Below, in pieces: positions 967 through 9,363 of a stretch of 64,000 nucleotides of DNA. The position numbers and the translations under genes were made by a program. The stretch is from the sequence record OM386655.1; one strand, 5' to 3'. Below the pieces are notes generated by a model, which was not told the origin of the DNA, did no database searches, and worked only from the letters and a program-made list of their open reading frames with translations. Numbering within the stretch: the first letter of the stretch is position 1; every line of letters begins with the position of its first letter. This DNA is from Escherichia phage vB_EcoM_ESCO10.

Positions 967-2055
967 ATGAAAGTAAAAGAACTCGACTTTGATGTAGCCT
1001 CCTTATTTAAAGGAGGTTCAAAAACCTCCGCAGGTCAATCTAAAGCTAAACCGGCCCAAACTACGGTAACAGCCCAGTATCCAGCAGAGAGGGCTTCCGG
1101 TAATGATACTTCTACAGATATGGTACTAAACGATTTATATAAAAATGGTTTACTTTTTACAGCATATAATTTTAGCTCTCGTGTATCGCCCGATTTGCGT
1201 AATGACCGTTCGAGCCAAATGACTAAAAAGTTTTCAAAAGCCGCTAATAAACTTACCGGTAATACTGGTGGGTTCAGTGCAGTTAAAAACCTGTTTAGTA
1301 GCAACTCTAAAGGAGTAAAATTTGATAGCCAGGCTTTAGCCAACATTTTACTCCCACGTTCCAAGTCTGATGTTGATTCAGTCACCCATAAATTTAATGA
1401 TGTAGGCGAATCATTAATTACTAAAGGCGGTGGTACTGCTACAGGTATTTTGAGTAACGTTGCTAGTACTGCGGTATTTGGTGCATTGGAATCTGTAACT
1501 AATGGGGTAATGGCTGATTCAGGAGAACAGATATATACCACCGCTCGTAGTATGTACGCAGGACCTGATAACCGTACTAAAGTATTTACTTGGGAAATGA
1601 CCCCTAGAAATGCTCAGGACCTTATCCAGATTATCAAAATATACGAAATCTTTAATTATTATTCTTATGGCGAAACAGGCAACTCTGCCTTCGCGGGTGA
1701 ATTAAAAGAGAAGATTGACACATGGTACAGGTCTACATTTAAAAAAGAAGCTATTGATAACTTTGATGGTAAGCTATTAGGAGAAGGTATTACAAGTTTC
1801 CTTTCCAATGTTATTGTAGTAAGTAACCCGACCATTTGGTATATTCGAAACTTTGGCGATACAAGTTCATATGACGGGCGCGAAGATATTTTTGGACCGT
1901 GTCAAATCCAGAGTATACGATTTGACAAAACTCCTGATGGGCATTTTAATGGTTTGGCTATTGCTCCTAACTTACCATCTACATTTAGTTTAGAAGTTAC
2001 TTTCCGTGAAATCATTACTTTGAACCGTGGCTCACTTTATACGGAAGGATTCTAA
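967..2055 (+). CDS. 48: baseplate tail-tube junction protein gp48
   Basis: Track ORF 961..2055 begins with TTG; ATG at 967 gives MKVKELDFD.. ; size and position match T4 gp48 (364 aa); followed by gp54 with TAATG overlap. Confidence 0.75.
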   Translation: MKVKELDFDVASLFKGGSKTSAGQSKAKPAQTTVTAQYPAERASGNDTSTDMVLNDLYKNGLLFTAYNFSSRVSPDLRNDRSSQMTKKFSKAANKLTGNTGGFSAVKNLFSSNSKGVKFDSQALANILLPRSKSDVDSVTHKFNDVGESLITKGGGTATGILSNVASTAVFGALESVTNGVMADSGEQIYTTARSMYAGPDNRTKVFTWEMTPRNAQDLIQIIKIYEIFNYYSYGETGNSAFAGELKEKIDTWYRSTFKKEAIDNFDGKLLGEGITSFLSNVIVVSNPTIWYIRNFGDTSSYDGREDIFGPCQIQSIRFDKTPDGHFNGLAIAPNLPSTFSLEVTFREIITLNRGSLYTEGF

Positions 2056-3008
2056 TGTATACTTTACAAGAATTTCAGAATCAGGCAATTAATATTGACC
2101 TACAAAGGAATAACCTGTTTAGCGTAGTATTTGCTACAGTTCCTTCTTCTAAATCCCAAGCGCTCCTCGACCAGTTCGGTGGAGCTTTATTTAACAACAT
2201 CCCTTTAAATACAGATTTGCTGGGTATTACACAAGGAGAGTTGACTCAAGGTGTTACGACATTAGTGACAGCGGGCACTCAGAAGTTGATTCGTAAGTCA
2301 GGCATAAGTAAATATCTGATTGGTGCTATGTCATCCAGGGTTGTGCAGAGTTTACTAGGTGAGTTTGAAGTCGGGACTTATCTTATGGATTTTTTCAATA
2401 TGGCTTATCCCACTGCGGGACTTTTAGTCCATGCAGTTAAAATCCCGGATAACACGTTGAATTATGAAATGGACCTTAACCATAACTCTCCTAATATAAA
2501 AATCACTGGAAGAGAATATTCCCCATTAGTATTAAGCTTCCGTATGGATTCTGAAGCTGCTAACTACCGTGCTTTTAATGATTGGGTCAATAGTGTCCAA
2601 GACCCTATTACGCAGCTAAGAGCATTACCTGAAGATGTTGAAGCTGACATCCAAGTCAACCTTCATTCTCGTAACGGATTGCCACATACGGTAGTAATGC
2701 TTAACGGTTGCGTTCCCGTTAGTGTTTCATCACCGGAATTATCCTACGACGGTGATAACCAAATTGCTTCGTTTGATGTTACATTTGCTTATAGAAGTAT
2801 ACAGACAGGTGCAGTTGGTAAACAAGCTGCTTACGAATGGTTGGAAGATAAAGTCCTTAAAGGTGTAGCGGGTCTAAGTGAGAGTAACTCATTAAGTTCT
2901 TCTGTAGCTAAATTGAGTAGACTTTCAGGAGCAGCAAGTGGATTGACTGGATTGGTTAATACGTTTGGTGGACGTGCTATTAATAATGGAATATCAAGGT
3001 TGTTATAA
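2055..3008 (+). CDS. 54: baseplate tail-tube initiator gp54
   Basis: 317 aa, start overlaps gp48 stop (TAATG); size and synteny with T4 gp54; terminator hairpin follows. Confidence 0.7.
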   Translation: MYTLQEFQNQAINIDLQRNNLFSVVFATVPSSKSQALLDQFGGALFNNIPLNTDLLGITQGELTQGVTTLVTAGTQKLIRKSGISKYLIGAMSSRVVQSLLGEFEVGTYLMDFFNMAYPTAGLLVHAVKIPDNTLNYEMDLNHNSPNIKITGREYSPLVLSFRMDSEAANYRAFNDWVNSVQDPITQLRALPEDVEADIQVNLHSRNGLPHTVVMLNGCVPVSVSSPELSYDGDNQIASFDVTFAYRSIQTGAVGKQAAYEWLEDKVLKGVAGLSESNSLSSSVAKLSRLSGAASGLTGLVNTFGGRAINNGISRLL

Positions 3009-3015
3009 TAAAAAA

Positions 3016-3033
3016 GGAGAGCCTTGGCTCTCC
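3016..3033. terminator. stem-loop GGAGAGC-cttg-GCTCTCC between convergent gp54 (+) and minus-strand early genes; likely bidirectional terminator
   Basis: 7-bp perfect stem with tetraloop, followed by TTTA; sits 8 nt after gp54 stop and 9 nt before the stop of minus ORF 3042..3332. Confidence 0.5.
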
Positions 3034-3041
3034 TTTAGGGG

Positions 3042-3332
3042 TTACTTACGGAACGAGATAAAACCTGCTGCAGTCATTAAGGGTTGCTTTTTAACAAATA
3101 CAGTAACTGAAATAGGAGCTTCAGATTCAAGCTGACCTGTCACTACACCATTAAAGATGTTTTCGGTTTGCTCAGGTTGTGAAAAATTTTCAACCGGGCG
3201 TAAGTCGAACTGCTTGTCTTCACCGAAAACGCGACGTAATTCATTACCTACTGCACTGTCGAACTCTTCAGAAGCTGGGATAACGTTTTCAACTACCAGT
3301 TCTTGACCATTAAAACGGAATGTAGATTTCAT
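3042..3332 (-). CDS. hypothetical protein (96 aa)
   Basis: Track ORF; RBS GAGG 9 nt upstream of ATG; own early promoter at 3361..3390. Confidence 0.5.
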   Translation of the reverse strand: MKSTFRFNGQELVVENVIPASEEFDSAVGNELRRVFGEDKQFDLRPVENFSQPEQTENIFNGVVTGQLESEAPISVTVFVKKQPLMTAAGFISFRK

Positions 3333-3360
3333 ATTGTTCTCCTCATGTTTGTGTAAGGTA

Positions 3361-3390
3361 ATAGTACCACATCCTTGTGGTGTTGTAAAC
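3361..3390 (-). promoter_or_regulatory. early promoter (sigma70-type, -35 GTTTAC / -10 TACTAT)
   Basis: minus strand GTTTAC-N18-TACTAT upstream of ORF 3042..3332; overlaps stop of alt paralog. Confidence 0.5.
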
Positions 3391-5513
3391 TACATTTTGA
3401 ATTTAGTTGGTAAAGCGGAGATGTTCAAAGATGCTGCAAGGATTTCCATAGCTTCGTTGCTTTCAGAAATAGATTCACTAATCAAGAATTGGCTGAATCC
3501 ATCCATCAGGCGAACTTCGCCGGTTTCCATCAAATGGTCACCATCGTAAACAGATTCGCTGAGCTCTGAAGGAGGTGTTACGGTAGCTTCCATAAGGTAT
3601 TTGTGAGACACTCTATCATTCATGGCAAAAGCCGCTACTTTATCAACCTTCAACAATAATCCGCGCGGAAGGATAATTTCTGCTTCTTCGGCATATTCTG
3701 TAAGGTCGCCGGGAGCGATAACTTTAACTGCTTCAGCACCTCGAATAACCATACCAATTTCAGCAATTCTATCCGCAGGGCCTTCAGGTGCAATTGGATT
3801 ACCAAACTCGTCTTCTTCCCATTCTACCTCTTCGTCATCGACTTCACCCACATCAGATGAACTACCACTAGCCAATTTAAACAACTCATCAGCGGAGGAT
3901 AAAGAACCTTCACCACCAACAAAAACGGCTTGGTTGTCGAGGGCCATATAATTTTTACCGAATTCACCAAAGATGTTAGGCTTTAATGAGGCTGACACAA
4001 AGTTCTTAAAGTAAAATGTTTTGTTATCGATATTATGGCGCAGAATTTTGTATGGCAAATCCTGACCACGATACAAAATAGTACCCTTAGGAAGTTTAAT
4101 ACCCTTAGTAAATGCTGAGTCTAAATCCTTAATCAATTTAATAGCCGTTGTATTGTTTTCGGATTCAGGTTTACCTAAAAGGAATAAGTTCATAGGAGCA
4201 TATTCAGCTGCGCAATATTCAATAATAGCGTTGCTTTCGTCTTTGGTTAGGTCCTTAGGTTTAATGAGCTCACCTGAATAAGCATATGCATCACTAATAG
4301 AATCGTTAATTAGTTTATAAACGGCTTCCATAGCGAAAGCAATTCGAGAGGCCTTTTCTGAAGGGGAGCCTTTAAAACGAGCGCTCAAGTTATTAACAAT
4401 TTTCTTAATAATATCCAGACTATTGGTGGTATTGATTTGCGAAAGGCCGCTTAAAAGTCTATCGACTTCTGTATTAAAAAATGCCATATTTTTAGAGTAA
4501 ATTTCAAACCCTTGTTTATCTCTATTAGCATAATTTAGTTTAAATTTACTATCAGTCATTAAAGCGTGCGTGAGAGCAATGGTGTATCTAAAGTTGGCAA
4601 GGTCCTCGCTCTTAGATTTAAACTGAGAAGCCTGGCGCATTTTGGTAATAGCACCTTTTTTAAAGTTCTGGCTAATCTGTTCAATACCTTCATTCTCAGG
4701 GCCTTCGGCAGTGTGAACCGGTACAGAAGCTTCAAATTCGTTATATACCTGCAATTCTTTAGGGGACAAAGTTTCAGGCTCAGCAGTAGAATACTGTGCG
4801 GCTGCTGCCATACGACGGGAAATCTTAGTACGGGTAATGACAGCCTTATCAGTACGTTTCTCTTCAACCTTAGCGATACTTGCCGCCATAGCTTCGACCT
4901 TACTTACGGCTTGACCTGTTTTCTTAGAAACATAAACTTCACCAACTTTAGACTCGACCTTAGTATAAAGATCGGCATCAATTTCAGGCATACCTTTGAT
5001 ATCTTCGATATTAGAACCACGACGTACTAAAAGAACGTAGGTATGTTTTCCACTGAATTGGAACATATCATCAACAACTTTAAACTTACCACCAGTACGA
5101 GCCATTACTAAACGAGCCAATACACGTTGTACAGTAGGGCCCTTACCTTTCATTTTCTTAGTAGGGAAACGGAACAGAACTGCGTCCATTTTAAGTTTGT
5201 TTACTTGTTCATATACTGTATCGAAAATAGTATTCAATGCACCAAGTGGGTCAGAACCAAGTCCACCTTTGAGTTCAGCCGGGGCTCCTTTGCTTGACAA
5301 ACTCATTAGAATAACATGAACATATTTGTCACCCGGCTTAACCATTTTAACTGCGTCTCCTTGAGACGCATAAGATACCATACGAGCAACAAGGTTATCA
5401 TTACCTGGAGCTTGAATAGAGAAAATCTGTGGGATACCGGAACCTGGTTTAAGATTTGTTACTGGATAGTTTTTAGCGGAATCACTATCAAAAACTTCGT
5501 TTAAATTTTCCAT
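3390..5513 (-). CDS. alt: Alt-like ADP-ribosyltransferase, paralog 1 (707 aa)
   Basis: Size and position match T4 alt (between 54 and 30); R-S-E ADP-ribosyltransferase motifs (LYRGQ ... FVSASL ... EAEIILPRG); N-terminal ~230 aa closely similar to the adjacent paralog. Confidence 0.7.
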   Translation of the reverse strand: MENLNEVFDSDSAKNYPVTNLKPGSGIPQIFSIQAPGNDNLVARMVSYASQGDAVKMVKPGDKYVHVILMSLSSKGAPAELKGGLGSDPLGALNTIFDTVYEQVNKLKMDAVLFRFPTKKMKGKGPTVQRVLARLVMARTGGKFKVVDDMFQFSGKHTYVLLVRRGSNIEDIKGMPEIDADLYTKVESKVGEVYVSKKTGQAVSKVEAMAASIAKVEEKRTDKAVITRTKISRRMAAAAQYSTAEPETLSPKELQVYNEFEASVPVHTAEGPENEGIEQISQNFKKGAITKMRQASQFKSKSEDLANFRYTIALTHALMTDSKFKLNYANRDKQGFEIYSKNMAFFNTEVDRLLSGLSQINTTNSLDIIKKIVNNLSARFKGSPSEKASRIAFAMEAVYKLINDSISDAYAYSGELIKPKDLTKDESNAIIEYCAAEYAPMNLFLLGKPESENNTTAIKLIKDLDSAFTKGIKLPKGTILYRGQDLPYKILRHNIDNKTFYFKNFVSASLKPNIFGEFGKNYMALDNQAVFVGGEGSLSSADELFKLASGSSSDVGEVDDEEVEWEEDEFGNPIAPEGPADRIAEIGMVIRGAEAVKVIAPGDLTEYAEEAEIILPRGLLLKVDKVAAFAMNDRVSHKYLMEATVTPPSELSESVYDGDHLMETGEVRLMDGFSQFLISESISESNEAMEILAASLNISALPTKFKM

Positions 5514-5516
5514 TAT

Positions 5517-7601
5517 TTACCCTTGGATGAATTTTTCTGGGATGTCGTCAAAATCAATACATGAAGCCAAAAGAGGCAACACATCAAAACGTGTGGATTT
5601 TACAAATGAGTCAAAGGACACAGGACTTTCGGAAGTATCAAAATCATCTTGGTATACAGCCAATTCACCGGTTTCCATTAATACGTCACCATCATACACT
5701 ACAGATTCTTGAAGCTCATCTGTTGTCATAACTTCAGCTTGAATGAGCTTTGTATTACTAGATGTTGTCCCGTCATTATTAGAAGCATCAGTTATTTTAT
5801 TAACTTTGACCATCAATCCGCGCGGTAGAATAACTTCAGCTTCTGTTGCTATACCTAATTGGCCTGGATAAACAACATTAACTTTATGAGCACCGTCAAT
5901 AGCCCATCCTATTTGAACTTTAACGTATTCAGGATTTTCTCTATATGCTCTTATTTCGCTTGGGTTAATAGTTATTCCTTCTTCATTTTTATCAACTGTT
6001 AGTTCATTGCGAGCTTCTGGTTCTAAAAGACCCACGCCAGCGTGAGTAACACCAAAACGACCAAAAATAATAGGAGTCAGTGAAGTAGATACAAAATTTC
6101 TAAAATAGAACACTTTATTTTTAACTAGTGCTTCGTATATAGGAGCAGTCATACTTTGGGCACGATAAACTGTAATGCCTTCTGGTATACGGTCTCCATT
6201 TTCAAAAGCTGAATCCAGATTATTAACGGCAGATTCGATATCTTTTTCGCCCATAACCTCATAGTTCTGAGGATTATAACGTCCTAAAAGAAGGTTATTG
6301 ATATCACCATATCCGGAACCACAATATTCACGAATACCACGTTTTTGAGAAGGGGTATATTTATCTGCACTATGACCCAAAGTAATATCAACCATAATAC
6401 CGCCGCCCACACCAGCAAAACTATACACACGTTTTTTAATGAACTTGGTCTTGGCTGCTTTCCACTTGGACTCAGTCAATTCATTCCAGAGGTCATCAGG
6501 TTGCCCTTTACGGGTTTTGTTGTGCGTGGCCACCCACTCGCCTTTATATTCTTCGAAGACACTGTTAATAACCGAAGCATATTTTTCCAGAGCTTTAACA
6601 GATGTTAAAGGTTCATTTTTGATAGCCGTAAGGATTCTCTCTTTAATTTTCTCTTGGATTTCACCAATAGCATGAAGTGGGAACATTTTATATTCGTAAT
6701 GCAACTCTTCAGCAGTACCTTCAGCCACTATATTAACAACCTTATTTTTAGCCGCTGGAGAATTATTATTCGTAACCATTTCCTGCGCGTCAGGGATTAA
6801 TGGAGCTGTAGCCGGTTTATTAAAATCTGCTGAAGTAGCTTCATACTTCTTAAACAGTTCGCTTTCATTACGATAAGATTCTAACGATTGGCTTGCTGCA
6901 ATCGCTCGCCGCGAAATCTTAGTTTTGGTTATAACCATTTTATCAGTGCGACGTTCTTCAACTTTAGCAATACTGCCGGCAATAGCAGTTTCTTTAGTAA
7001 CCTGCACGCCTTCTTTTTTAGAAATATAAACTTCACCAACATCAGAATCTACCTTAGTATACAGTTCAGCATTAATTCCTGGCATACCTTTGATATCTTC
7101 GATATCAGCTTGTTTACGAACTACTAGGATATACGTGTGTTTACCTGTAAATTGGTACATGGCCGGAACTACTTTGAAGCGTCCGCCTGTTTTTTGAGTT
7201 ACTAAACGTTGGATAATTCTCTGGACAACAGGACCTTGACCTTTCATTTTCTTGGTAGGAAAACGGAACATAACAGCATCCATACGAAGCTTTTTAACTT
7301 GTTCGAATACTACGTCGAAAATGGTATTAATAGCATCAATAGGAGTAGGGCCTAAGCCGCCTTTAAGTTCAGCTGGTGAACCTTTAGCTGAAAGGCTCAT
7401 AAGGATGATGTGGGCGTATTTATCACCTAATTTAACCTGTTTAATAGCATCGCCTTCAGAGGCATAAGATACCATACGAGCAACCAATTGGGATTCGGCA
7501 TTACCGATCTTCCAAATCTGGGGCACTTTAAGTTTTGGGTTTAAGTTTACAGTAGGCAGGGTGCCTTCAGACTCAAACACTTCATTTAATTGTTCGGTCA
7601 T
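5517..7601 (-). CDS. alt: Alt-like ADP-ribosyltransferase, paralog 2 (694 aa)
   Basis: Same architecture as paralog 1 (VYRAQ ... FVSTSL ... EAEVILPRG); RBS GAGGAA 6 nt upstream of ATG; only 3 nt separate it from paralog 1. Confidence 0.7.
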   Translation of the reverse strand: MTEQLNEVFESEGTLPTVNLNPKLKVPQIWKIGNAESQLVARMVSYASEGDAIKQVKLGDKYAHIILMSLSAKGSPAELKGGLGPTPIDAINTIFDVVFEQVKKLRMDAVMFRFPTKKMKGQGPVVQRIIQRLVTQKTGGRFKVVPAMYQFTGKHTYILVVRKQADIEDIKGMPGINAELYTKVDSDVGEVYISKKEGVQVTKETAIAGSIAKVEERRTDKMVITKTKISRRAIAASQSLESYRNESELFKKYEATSADFNKPATAPLIPDAQEMVTNNNSPAAKNKVVNIVAEGTAEELHYEYKMFPLHAIGEIQEKIKERILTAIKNEPLTSVKALEKYASVINSVFEEYKGEWVATHNKTRKGQPDDLWNELTESKWKAAKTKFIKKRVYSFAGVGGGIMVDITLGHSADKYTPSQKRGIREYCGSGYGDINNLLLGRYNPQNYEVMGEKDIESAVNNLDSAFENGDRIPEGITVYRAQSMTAPIYEALVKNKVFYFRNFVSTSLTPIIFGRFGVTHAGVGLLEPEARNELTVDKNEEGITINPSEIRAYRENPEYVKVQIGWAIDGAHKVNVVYPGQLGIATEAEVILPRGLMVKVNKITDASNNDGTTSSNTKLIQAEVMTTDELQESVVYDGDVLMETGELAVYQDDFDTSESPVSFDSFVKSTRFDVLPLLASCIDFDDIPEKFIQG

Positions 7602-7636
7602 AATAATTCCTCTTTAATAACCGTATTTATGCCATT

Positions 7637-7654
7637 AAAGGCCCGAAGGCCTTT
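7637..7654 (-). terminator. UUCG-tetraloop hairpin AAAGGCC-uucg-GGCCUUU (minus-strand transcript)
   Basis: Perfect 7-bp stem; located between stop of ORF 7656..7838 and alt paralog 2 start. Confidence 0.4.
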
Positions 7655-7655
7655 A

Positions 7656-7838
7656 TTAAAGTACTAATAGCGTACGGTATACTTCAAACTTAGGGCCCTT
7701 TTCATACCGGTCAAAAGTATCTTTGAAATCAGCAAAAGTGATTTCATTATCAAATTCAAGGATAATTTGTGAACATGAAGTAGAAACATCTCCACCTTCT
7801 TTATATCCAATAACCACGGTTTCTAAATAAGCTTTCAT
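7656..7838 (-). CDS. hypothetical small protein (60 aa)
   Basis: Track ORF 7656..7904 trimmed to internal Met (MKAYLETV..) whose ATG lies 1 nt after ligase stop (TAATATG coupling); longer version would overlap ligase by 65 nt. Confidence 0.35.
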   Translation of the reverse strand: MKAYLETVVIGYKEGGDVSTSCSQIILEFDNEITFADFKDTFDRYEKGPKFEVYRTLLVL

Positions 7839-7839
7839 A

Positions 7840-9363
7840 TTATAACCCTGTCTGAGACCAATCACCAAATACGTCTTCAAACGTATCAGCTTCTGTTTTA
7901 TCAAATCGCCAACCTTTAATAATTGGGAGGAAAATACCTACAGTATCAGTACGTCCTTTAGAATGAACCCAACCATTGCATTCACAATCAGCAATACGTC
8001 CAATCAACTTACCTTCACGTGCTTGTTTCATAAGAAGTTCACGGTCTAAATCAGGACGATCTTCCAATGGAATCGACACCTTTTTACCTGATTTATCTTT
8101 CTTATGGGTGGTATCTTTAAAGCCAGAACCGCAGTCACTTGTAATTCGACGACAACGTGATACTAACTCGACACCACCAAGTTTGTTAGGGTCTTTAGAG
8201 TGTTCATAATAACCTACTACTTCTAAAGCGATATCGATTACTTCTTTGAACTTGATAAGATTCTTAGAACGGCGGTTTTCCCAGTAGGAGTCCATGTTCT
8301 TAAGGATAATACCTTCCAGACCTTGGTCGACGTATTTTTTATAAACGACTTTAGCTTCAGCCAAATTGTTAACCCATTGGTTTTCAATAGCTTCAACACG
8401 TGTTGTACCATGCAATACGACATTATGAGCAACCATAAGTTCTAAGGCAGTAAAGCGTAAATCATACTTATCGCCTTTAATTTTACCTTCGGAATACACT
8501 ACATCTAACGGAACGTAATCCCACGCCTGTAATACCATGCCAGCAGCTTCAGTAGCAGAAATAGTTCCTTGAAGAGCTTTGTTAGCCAAGCCGTTTGATG
8601 TAGAACGATCGGCGACGGTTTGGAATTCCTTTGCCTTACTTAATTCAGGGACTTCTTCATCAAACATGCTAAACAGGTCATTGGATGTTTTGGGTTCAAC
8701 CTTAGGGGTATGGTAAACTAATTCACCGTCAATCATAACACCATTAGGATGACGTTTACGAGCTTCTTCAGTCATCACCATTAATTCGGCTGCCAAAAGA
8801 TTAAGTCCTTGGTATTCATTACCACCACGGGTAAGGAATGTAACACCCGAATCACGTACTTCAGCAAAGCAACGAGCCCCATCAGCTTTTAATTGAGCAA
8901 ATGCAGGCCATTTAATATTTTTCTTAATCAGAGCTTCATCATAAGAACTAGCCAACATCTGAGGTTGTTCAGGGATTAAACCTTTCCAAACCTTGTTGGC
9001 AATAGAAATAGATGCACCACATTCAAGGTCACGCATCATTACACGACGTAATACCTCAACATCTTGTCCTTTGGCATCGGCAATAATTTGGGCAAGTTCT
9101 TCAATGGCCGCATTACCTGTAATCTTACGGGTGGCTAATGTGAACTCAGCGAAATCAAGAAGGTCTTCAAGTGTAATCATACCAAAGGATTGAGACGTAA
9201 ATCCAGGTTCTGGCCACTTTTTAATACCGTAGTTTAATCGGCGCGTATAAGCCATACGATAAACACGTTTAAGAAGCTCGTTGTCCTTTTCACGAGCAAT
9301 AATAGCTTCTTTAGCTTTGGTAGAATCGATAGCAGCAATTTCGTTCAAGATATCTAAAATCAT
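7840..9363 (-). CDS. 30: ATP-dependent DNA ligase (gp30)
   Basis: Adenylation motif KADGARCF; strong end-to-end similarity to recalled T4 ligase starting at MILDILNEIA (track Met at 9402 is upstream of the middle-promoter -10); RBS GAGGTGATT-ATG. Confidence 0.85.
   Translation of the reverse strand: MILDILNEIAAIDSTKAKEAIIAREKDNELLKRVYRMAYTRRLNYGIKKWPEPGFTSQSFGMITLEDLLDFAEFTLATRKITGNAAIEELAQIIADAKGQDVEVLRRVMMRDLECGASISIANKVWKGLIPEQPQMLASSYDEALIKKNIKWPAFAQLKADGARCFAEVRDSGVTFLTRGGNEYQGLNLLAAELMVMTEEARKRHPNGVMIDGELVYHTPKVEPKTSNDLFSMFDEEVPELSKAKEFQTVADRSTSNGLANKALQGTISATEAAGMVLQAWDYVPLDVVYSEGKIKGDKYDLRFTALELMVAHNVVLHGTTRVEAIENQWVNNLAEAKVVYKKYVDQGLEGIILKNMDSYWENRRSKNLIKFKEVIDIALEVVGYYEHSKDPNKLGGVELVSRCRRITSDCGSGFKDTTHKKDKSGKKVSIPLEDRPDLDRELLMKQAREGKLIGRIADCECNGWVHSKGRTDTVGIFLPIIKGWRFDKTEADTFEDVFGDWSQTGL

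Follow-up and report, generated by a model that had tools for sequence, protein, structure and literature searches.

The described system nearest to the genes analysed here is Alt of bacteriophage T4 (gpAlt, NP_049811), a head-packaged NAD+--arginine ADP-ribosyltransferase. About 40 copies of T4 Alt are carried per head and injected with the DNA (PMC9026906), and the enzyme has many targets (PMC5512222). An E-to-A change in its E-x-E motif abolishes activity (PMC11404850). The prohead protease gp21 cuts T4 Alt at ITE-6 and LTE-619, yielding a 68.2 kDa product by mass spectrometry (PMC5694885). Paralogous duplications adjoining alt were described in several T4-like phages, among them alt.-1/alt.-2 of T4 and, at full length, a duplicate in 44RR (Nolan et al., 2006; PMC1524935), and a duplication of alt was reported in Ac42, JS98 and Bp7 (Jin et al., 2014; PMC4177764). 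The DNA analysed here was a stretch of 64,000 nucleotides (nt) from Escherichia phage vB_EcoM_ESCO10 (Dhakavirus; OM386655.1), referred to as the window, in which two genes of this family, altA and altB, lie in tandem. They very probably form an old tandem paralog pair encoding virion-packaged mono-ADP-ribosyltransferases of the T4 Alt family. The two open reading frames (ORFs) are as follows.

5517..7601, minus strand: altA, the upstream gene, 694 amino acids (aa), aligning collinearly with T4 Alt from end to end; the same protein as UPW37917.1 of ESCO10.
3390..5513, minus strand: altB, the second of the Alt paralogs, 707 aa; the same protein as UPW37916.1 of ESCO10.

The genes are 3 nt apart (altA stop codon TAA, then ATA, then the altB ATG). 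A preliminary description, made from the sequence alone, had reported two Alt-type ORFs of 707 and 694 aa with this spacing, and both the coordinates and the spacing were confirmed. Both proteins matched PHROG 802, 'Alt-like RNA polymerase ADP-ribosyltransferase' (altB residues 1-707, E = 1.2e-251; altA residues 1-693, E = 4.9e-261). Both also matched Pfam ADPrib_exo_Tox (PF03496) above the gathering score and were structurally similar to solved ADP-ribosyltransferases (ARTs) of the C3/VIP2-like fold. The Pfam family PF26846.1 was listed alongside PF03496 on every Alt homologue and may be a recent family for the N-terminal or central part of Alt. No solved structure of Alt was found in the PDB, where only marginal sequence matches to iota-toxin were obtained (E = 0.008). 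BLASTP identity to T4 Alt was 48% for altA and 32% for altB, the central ~180 residues of altB failing to align with A-type or T4 sequences.

Catalytic motifs were located at YRAQ 479-482, STSL 505-508 and EAEVILPRG 587-595 in altA (catalytic residues R480, S505-T-S507 and E587-A-E589), and at YRGQ 481-484, SASL 507-510 and EAEIILPRG 610-618 in altB (R482, S507-A-S509 and E610-A-E612). Across 76 aligned homologues the first Ser and both Glu never varied, and the Arg and second Ser were at least 90% conserved. All R-S-E motifs previously quoted for the two copies were thus found, and on careful alignment neither copy lacks catalytic residues. These comparisons support the assignment of altA and altB as Alt-type ADP-ribosyltransferase paralogs with predicted intact catalytic motifs, a common N-terminal domain and different centres. 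The inactive T4 mutant has been named Alt E577A (PMC11404850); in the 682-aa T4 RefSeq protein (T4 locus 6455-8503) the two Glu of E-x-E stand at 574 and 576, with Val at 577. The name looks like a one-residue numbering offset in the literature rather than a different residue.

Motifs aligned with the two T4 gp21 sites were LNE-7 and LQE-632 in altA and LNE-6 and LSE-653 in altB, and the Glu columns of both sites were invariant in the 76 homologues. The mass computed for T4 Alt residues 7-619 was 68.2 kDa; the predicted mature masses were 69.4 kDa for altA and 71.1 kDa for altB. By analogy with T4 Alt, packaging of both copies fits the N- and C-terminal gp21 motifs that they have kept. Each product would consist of five parts: an N-propeptide of 6-7 residues (ending L-N-E), an alpha/beta N-domain, a helical centre, an ART domain of the C3/VIP2 type carrying the arginine-specific set of R, S-x-S and E-x-E, and a C-propeptide of 54-62 residues after L-x-E. 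Both proteins would be incorporated into the prohead core, lose their two termini to cleavage by gp21, be injected with the DNA and then, like T4 Alt, ADP-ribosylate host proteins. The altA product would correspond to T4 Alt, the known targets of which include the alpha subunit of RNA polymerase. The altB product would represent a separate, older lineage, and it most likely modifies a different set of host proteins, because its central domain and the surface inserts of its ART domain are different. The N-domain and C-propeptide probably serve assembly into the prohead of their own phage, presumably through interaction with the prohead core.

Overall, altA and altB were 38% identical (BLASTP, E = 9e-145). 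Domain identities, computed from a 22-sequence alignment, were 67% over 236 aligned residues of the N-terminal domain, 13% (noise) over the central ~180 residues, 38% in the ART domain and 33% in the C-terminal tail. The close similarity noted earlier over the N-terminal ~230 residues therefore holds. So does, at the level of sequence, the view that the central regions are unrelated: no BLAST match was obtained between them and profile-profile comparison (hhalign) gave a probability of 3.2%. No remote homology of the A and B central domains was found in these comparisons, although AlphaFold2 predicts both to be all-helical. Between the N-domains of altA and altB the synonymous divergence (dS) was 1.54 and the ratio of nonsynonymous to synonymous divergence (dN/dS) 0.20; A and B N-domains compared within one genome gave a dS of 1.5-1.8, near saturation, at a dN/dS of ~0.2. 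The direct repeat at the 5' ends of the two genes was 72-85% identical as DNA, with a longest exact run of 25 nt. Recent gene conversion between the 5' ends was rejected on the dS and the length of this run. For the same reasons, the resemblance of the N-domains within the genome is to be read either as old homogenisation or as shared constraint. The preliminary description had regarded the repeat as a substrate for recombination and copy-number change. As a live substrate it is weak, with a dS of 1.5 and no identical run above 25 nt; copy number does vary within the genus, some phages holding three copies.

Two copies of Alt may be redundant, acting on the same targets (RNA polymerase alpha and others) and raising the dose or the robustness to variation in hosts or defences. 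Both have an active site of the E-x-E arginine-specific type and the same predicted delivery route, and T4 Alt is known for many targets (PMC5512222). Redundancy is nevertheless unlikely, given ART domains that are 38% identical, central domains with no detectable homology, and A and B lineages that stay distinct across genera while each is under purifying selection, which is not expected of interchangeable copies. Because the lineages have been kept apart and conserved, and differ to this extent in the ART domain and centre, different host targets for the A and B proteins are a plausible and the most economical reading of the sequences.

In the ESCO10 record altA (UPW37917.1) is annotated as 'putative internal head protein' and altB (UPW37916.1) as 'hypothetical protein'. 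These labels reflect an annotation gap and not new biology; in relatives both genes are named as Alt-like ADP-ribosyltransferases. The DNA of the region was ~90-92% identical to Dhakavirus phages (IME281, IME341, IME08, JS10, the JS98 group and others), and the records of JS98, JS10 and IME08 name the pair 'alta' and 'altb'. The pair was therefore already known, being annotated in these phages, with alt duplications in print. The orthologs of altB are 'altb' of IME08 and JS98 and 'alt.-2' of RB14. RB14 and T6 (Tequatrovirus) each have two full-length alt genes (697 and 685 aa) 3 nt apart in the same slot. Searched alone by tblastn at a coverage of at least 80%, the central domain of altB was found in 445 phage records, in which altB is full length. 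In 43 of them identity was at least 95% (Dhakavirus) and in 402 it was ~46%, the latter including T2, T6, RB3, RB14, wV7 and ime09.

T4 had been described as carrying a single alt gene in this slot, but its alt.-1/alt.-2 ORFs are the stump of a second copy. The T4 record itself attributes alt.-1/alt.-2 to an old duplication that covered the first part of alt. At its N-terminus the B copy of RB14 matched T4 alt.-1 at 24 of the first 25 residues, and T4 and the window have homologous stop-3 nt-ATG junctions. T4 keeps the first ~350 nt of B and lacks ~1.69 kb compared with RB14 (RB14 locus 3849-5538; T4 6105-6113), a segment that is also present in T6. The T4 B copy is frameshifted, and the deletion takes roughly residues 117-680. 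Since alt.-1/alt.-2 correspond to the frameshifted first ~350 nt of the second Alt gene of RB14 and T6, sequence comparison indicates that T4 lost altB by a ~1.7-kb deletion and is the derived case. The full-length pair is the common, ancestral state of T2/T6-type and JS98-type phages. A single alt copy was present in the sampled members of Mosigvirus, Kanagawavirus, Tegunavirus and Gaprivervirus and in a Klebsiella phage, and three copies in some Dhakavirus members (MX01, AnYang, QL01, C6, KIT01 and others, ~12 records). Two further arrangements were observed. Krischvirus Delraymugoa (locus 2447-5401) has a full Alt followed by a short stand-alone ART of 274 aa, and Acinetobacter phage Ac42 (locus 1831-5806) has two Alt genes, 702 and 603 aa long, whose strand is opposite to that of gene 30.

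AlphaFold2 models were built from 76-sequence alignments, with a mean predicted local distance difference test score (pLDDT) of 83.5 and a predicted template modelling score (pTM) of 0.73 for altA, and values of 80.3 and 0.72 for altB. In both models the N-terminus was disordered and was followed by an alpha/beta N-domain (~17-195), a helical linker, a centre made up wholly of helices, an ART domain and a C-tail of low confidence. The parts of altA are as follows.

7581..7601, minus strand: predicted N-terminal propeptide MTEQLNE, ending in a gp21-type L-x-E and aligning with MELITE of T4.
6927..7580, minus strand: N-terminal alpha/beta domain, aa 8-225, lineage-specific.
6357..6890, minus strand: central helical domain, aa 238-415, the T2/T6/RB14 allele.
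5706..6356, minus strand: ART domain, aa 416-632, with R480, S505-T-S507 and E587-A-E589.
5520..5705, minus strand: predicted C-terminal propeptide, aa 633-694, after LQE-632, which aligns with LTE-619 of T4.

The N-domain of altA was 97% identical to JS98 altA, 82% to Kanagawavirus Alt, 67% to its own altB and 46% to RB14 and T4 Alt. Its centre, predicted all-helical with a pLDDT above 90, was 62% identical to RB14 Alt, 35% to T4 Alt, 33% to JS98 altA and 13% to altB. The ART domain was 92% identical to RB14 Alt and 63% to T4 Alt, and the C-propeptide, modelled at low pLDDT, 93% to JS98 altA and 47% to RB14. The parts of altB are as follows.

5496..5513, minus strand: predicted N-terminal propeptide MENLNE, with an L-x-E site that aligns with ITE-6 of T4; E6 is invariant.
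4809..5495, minus strand: N-terminal alpha/beta domain and helical linker, aa 7-235, 67% identical to altA and 45% to the RB14 B copy.
4239..4808, minus strand: central helical domain of B-type, aa 236-425, 47% identical to RB14/T6 B.
3555..4238, minus strand: ART domain, aa 426-653, with R482, S507-A-S509 and E610-A-E612, 58% identical to RB14 B and 38% to altA.
3780..3860, minus strand: acidic insert in the ART domain, aa ~552-578, EVDDEEVEWEEDEFGNPIAPEG, predicted disordered.
3393..3554, minus strand: predicted C-terminal propeptide, aa 654-707, after LSE-653 (E653 invariant), ending in KFKM.

The KFKM ending is shared with RB14/T6 B. The acidic insert, of 22 residues, is present in the Dhakavirus B copies and absent from RB14/T6 B, and its site is the most variable part of the ART domain. 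The pLDDT fell below 50 at residues 552-566 and 573-578, the ART domain being otherwise modelled confidently. Compared with JS98 altB, altB gave a dN/dS of 0.02-0.05 in the N, central and ART domains and 0.15 in the short C-tail; the ART domain gave 0.19 against RB14 B. These ratios indicate strong purifying selection on altB.

It is improbable that altB is in decay or has no enzymatic role, serving for example as a structural protein inside the head or as a decoy, and is heading for loss as in T4. Its label in ESCO10 is only 'hypothetical protein', T4 deleted most of B without obvious cost, and the Dhakavirus B copies have S-A-S in place of S-T-S as well as the disordered insert. The ORF is, however, full length here as in the 445 records, the Arg, both Ser and both Glu are intact, dN/dS within the genus is low over all three domains, and the ART domain outside the insert is modelled with confidence.

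The history of the pair was examined in neighbour-joining trees (200 bootstraps) built domain by domain. In the tree of the central and ART domains all B-types, from Tequatrovirus and Dhakavirus, formed one clade (100%) apart from all A-types. In the same tree altA of the window grouped with altA of T6 and RB14 (99%), JS98 altA with Mosigvirus Alt (100%), and the middle copy of MX01 with Gaprivervirus Alt (100%). In the N-domain tree the Tequatrovirus A and B copies together formed one clade (100%), Dhakavirus A grouped with Kanagawavirus and Mosigvirus Alts (84-89%), and Dhakavirus B was sister to that group (86%). The C-tails of the B-types formed a cross-genus clade (94%).

Sliding windows placed two switch points in altA, at ~residue 226 and at residues 625-630. 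Outside them altA was 93-100% identical to JS98 altA and ~30-60% to RB14; between them it was 53-100% identical to RB14 and 10-87% to JS98. Both switch points sit in segments that every A-type Alt conserves (KISRR..SQSLES, and the residues preceding L-x-E-S), natural anchors for recombination. Between altA and RB14 altA the dS was 0.54 in the ART domain and 2.55 in the N-domain, and for the ART segment the dS to IME08, of the same genus, was 0.52. DNA identity to RB14 was 78.5% over 6921..5664, compared with ~66% in the ligase gene and genes 48/54. Because the ART dS equals the within-genus value and the local DNA identity is raised, the ART module must have passed between genera within the period over which Dhakavirus itself diversified. 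Identity by domain, sliding windows, conflicting trees and dS agree that the Alt proteins are mosaic: the N-domain and C-propeptide follow the phage lineage and the central and ART modules have been exchanged between genera. The C-propeptide is counted with the N-domain as lineage-specific because only a few residues separate the 3' switch point from the C-terminal cleavage site downstream of it. The centre of altB distantly matched that of the single-copy Alts of Proteus, Providencia and Morganella phages (hhalign probability 83.8%, E = 8e-6, 165 columns), and gave no profile match to A-type or Klebsiella-type centres. Its kinship with the Proteus/Providencia-type Alts again favours module exchange over divergence in place.

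Other copies showed comparable composition. The middle copy of MX01-type Dhakavirus phages (4718-6763 in MX01) is chimeric: it matches altB in the N-domain (91%) and altA in the C-tail (70%), and in the centre (85%) and ART domain (76%) it matches the Alt that Gaprivervirus phages (VR26, VR7, SP18) have as their only copy. The sequence at the altA/altB junction of the window recurs unchanged at each of its two gene junctions. JS98 altA (3501-5588) is 97% identical to altA of the window in the N-domain and 93% in the C-tail, 33% in the centre and 64% in the ART domain. Its centre is 69% and its ART domain 80% identical to Mosigvirus, so that altA alleles differ within one genus. The centre of T4 Alt is a further allele, 35% identical to that of RB14.

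The preliminary description had presented the pair as departing from the T4 plan through a duplication specific to the lineage, with divergence afterwards, and comparison with other phages did not support this: T6 and RB14 have the same pair, the B centre is in 445 records, and the B-types form a clade with 100% support. Since B-types cluster across genera and the junction has been kept as well, the comparisons indicate that the altA/altB pair is old and not a recent duplication. A recent lineage-specific tandem duplication of alt, with rapid divergence of the centre and a 5' repeat still driving recombination and copy-number change, is most improbable: it would account for N-domains that are 67% identical within the genome against 45-46% for orthologs between genera, for the single N-domain clade (100%) of Tequatrovirus A and B, and for a Dhakavirus copy number of two to three with identical gene junctions, but not for B central, ART and C-tail sequences in a cross-genus clade (94-100%) apart from all A-types, for the same pair in T6, RB14 and across the 402 T2/T6-type records, or for an A/B N-domain dS near saturation with a longest identical DNA run of 25 nt.

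As a predicted transcription unit the old pair has the following surroundings.

7656..7838, minus strand: alt.1, probably 60 aa from the ATG at 7838 and not the 82-aa TTG ORF (7656-7904).
7637..7654, minus strand: terminator-like hairpin AAAGGCCTTCGGGCCTTT, directly after the alt.1 stop and upstream of altA.
7624..7631, minus strand: late-promoter-like box CATAAATA, agreeing with the T4 late consensus TATAAATA at 7/8 positions and followed ~22 nt downstream by the altA ATG.
7608..7613, minus strand: Shine-Dalgarno-like AGAGGA upstream of the altA ATG.
3042..3332, minus strand: alt.-3, 96 aa, DUF5498 (Pfam 9e-34; PHROG 1739), the last gene of the predicted late unit.
3013..3036, minus strand: strong intrinsic-terminator-like hairpin, a 10-bp stem and a T run, between the convergent alt.-3 and gene 54.

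On the minus strand the order is alt.-3, altB, altA, alt.1 and DNA ligase gene 30, and the plus-strand neighbours are genes 29, 48 and 54, in the order kept from T4 (assignments from Pfam and PHROG). The alt slot is flanked by gene 30/alt.1 and by alt.-3/gene 54, the alt genes being opposite in strand to those of the baseplate, and this order is common to T4, RB14, T6, JS98 and five single-copy genera; the position of alt.-3 is likewise kept in T4, RB14, JS98 and the single-copy genera. The shorter alt.1 was preferred because the match to PHROG 1976 starts at residue 23 of the 82-aa ORF and the ATG at 7838 lies next to the ligase stop codon, one base past it. The 82-aa TTG ORF overlaps the ligase gene.

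The hairpin AAAGGCCTTCGGGCCTTT was also found upstream of T4 alt, where it is identical, and upstream of IME08 alta and MX01 gp196, and a terminator upstream of alt was reported as conserved in 5/6 T4-like genomes (PMC1524935). At the homologous position, after the matching hairpin, T4 has the exact TATAAATA. No exact TATAAATA was found in 3000-7700, and all boxes with one mismatch lie more than 600 nt upstream of the altB start. Scans for sigma-70 promoters and for terminators gave background levels, with the terminator at 3013-3036 as the sole exception. No separate altB promoter was found, there being no late box near the altB start and only background in the sigma-70 scan. Because the hairpin and CATAAATA stand upstream of altA, no comparable box is near altB and a terminator follows alt.-3, altA, altB and alt.-3 are read as one predicted late transcription unit, transcription running from the late-promoter-like box through altA, altB and alt.-3 to the terminator. 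The gap of only 3 nt hints at possible translational coupling of altB to altA.

Several points weigh against an old pair of packaged, active enzymes. The promoter box is one mismatch off consensus, and exact matches to the consensus were no more frequent in the window than chance allows (5, with 7.4 expected). The S-A-S of altB, in place of the near-invariant S-T-S, or the disordered acidic insert in its ART domain, could change or reduce activity. Searches of the available literature found no experiment on altB or on any Dhakavirus Alt, nor proteomic data for Alt proteins of ESCO10 or of JS98-type phages, and what is predicted of packaging, cleavage, activity and targets is carried over from T4 Alt. 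T4 grows although it has lost altB, and does not require alt either (PMC9026906), so that a second Alt copy is dispensable, at least in laboratory hosts. With these points taken into account, an old pair encoding two virion-packaged mono-ADP-ribosyltransferases is still strongly favoured. A broader reading is held only tentatively, at somewhat less than even chances. In it the Alt locus would be a modular, polymorphic system of injected effectors, with a lineage-matched delivery part (N-domain and propeptides), swapped central and ART modules and one to three tandem copies, and AltB would be a second injected ART with its own targets, overlooked since T4 deleted altB.

The N-domain could not be named by sequence, no match being obtained in Pfam at E<=10, in NCBIfam or in a PDB profile search. 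In the AlphaFold2 models its elements run as three strands followed by helix-strand-helix-strand, with an invariant LK-GLG-x-x-P loop before a helix. This order would match the GNAT core, β2-β3-β4-α3-β5-α4-β6, a lead only and one without support at the level of sequence. As a weaker possibility from the models, the conserved N-domain may be a GNAT-like ligand-binding or enzymatic domain and not a mere packaging handle.

As a genome feature the pair is ordinary: it is in GenBank, it is named in close relatives, and the duplication is in print. It is T4 that is atypical, since most T2/T6-type and all JS98-type phages examined hold a second Alt paralog that is intact and maintained by selection. 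What remains of value is the altB paralog, together with the documented pattern of module exchange. Phage ADP-ribosylation is again under active study (RNAylation by ModB, Alt mutants), and AltB and the swapped modules offer ready natural variants for the target choice of injected ARTs. The conserved termini mark the parts that a packaged cargo protein probably needs.

Among known systems, T4 Alt resembles altA in locus, in full-length collinearity at 48% identity, in its R, S-T-S and E-x-E residues, in its gp21 motifs and in the upstream hairpin and late box. It differs in the N-domain (46%) and centre (35%), and the ART domain of altA is nearer to the T2/T6/RB14 allele (92%) than to that of T4 (63%). 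The altb proteins of JS98, JS10 and IME08 are 96-97% identical to altB. The Tequatrovirus B copy (RB14 'alt.-2', T6 EcT6_00197, T2, ime09) resembles altB over its full length (48%) and in its position, 3-nt spacing and KFKM end, but is without the 22-residue acidic insert and has S-T-S where the Dhakavirus B copies have S-A-S. T4 alt.-1/alt.-2 share with altB the position and the homologous stop-3 nt-ATG junction, and their sequence corresponds to the first ~125 residues of RB14 B; unlike the intact gene of the window they are frameshifted, with ~1.69 kb deleted. The R-S-E toxins of the C3/VIP2/iota/Vis type are more distant, at only 17-25% sequence identity. They are secreted or enter through a binary-toxin pore, whereas Alt is delivered by capsid ejection and has extra N-terminal and central domains and propeptides removed by a protease. 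Polymorphic toxin systems, which combine a conserved delivery part with an exchangeable toxin module, offer an analogy: in Alt a lineage-conserved N-domain and C-propeptide surround swapped modules, with several alleles and two to three tandem copies per genome. Alt differs from them in being without an immunity gene, in having host-protein targets and in an exchangeable module that is internal and not C-terminal, and the resemblance is one of evolutionary pattern and not of membership.

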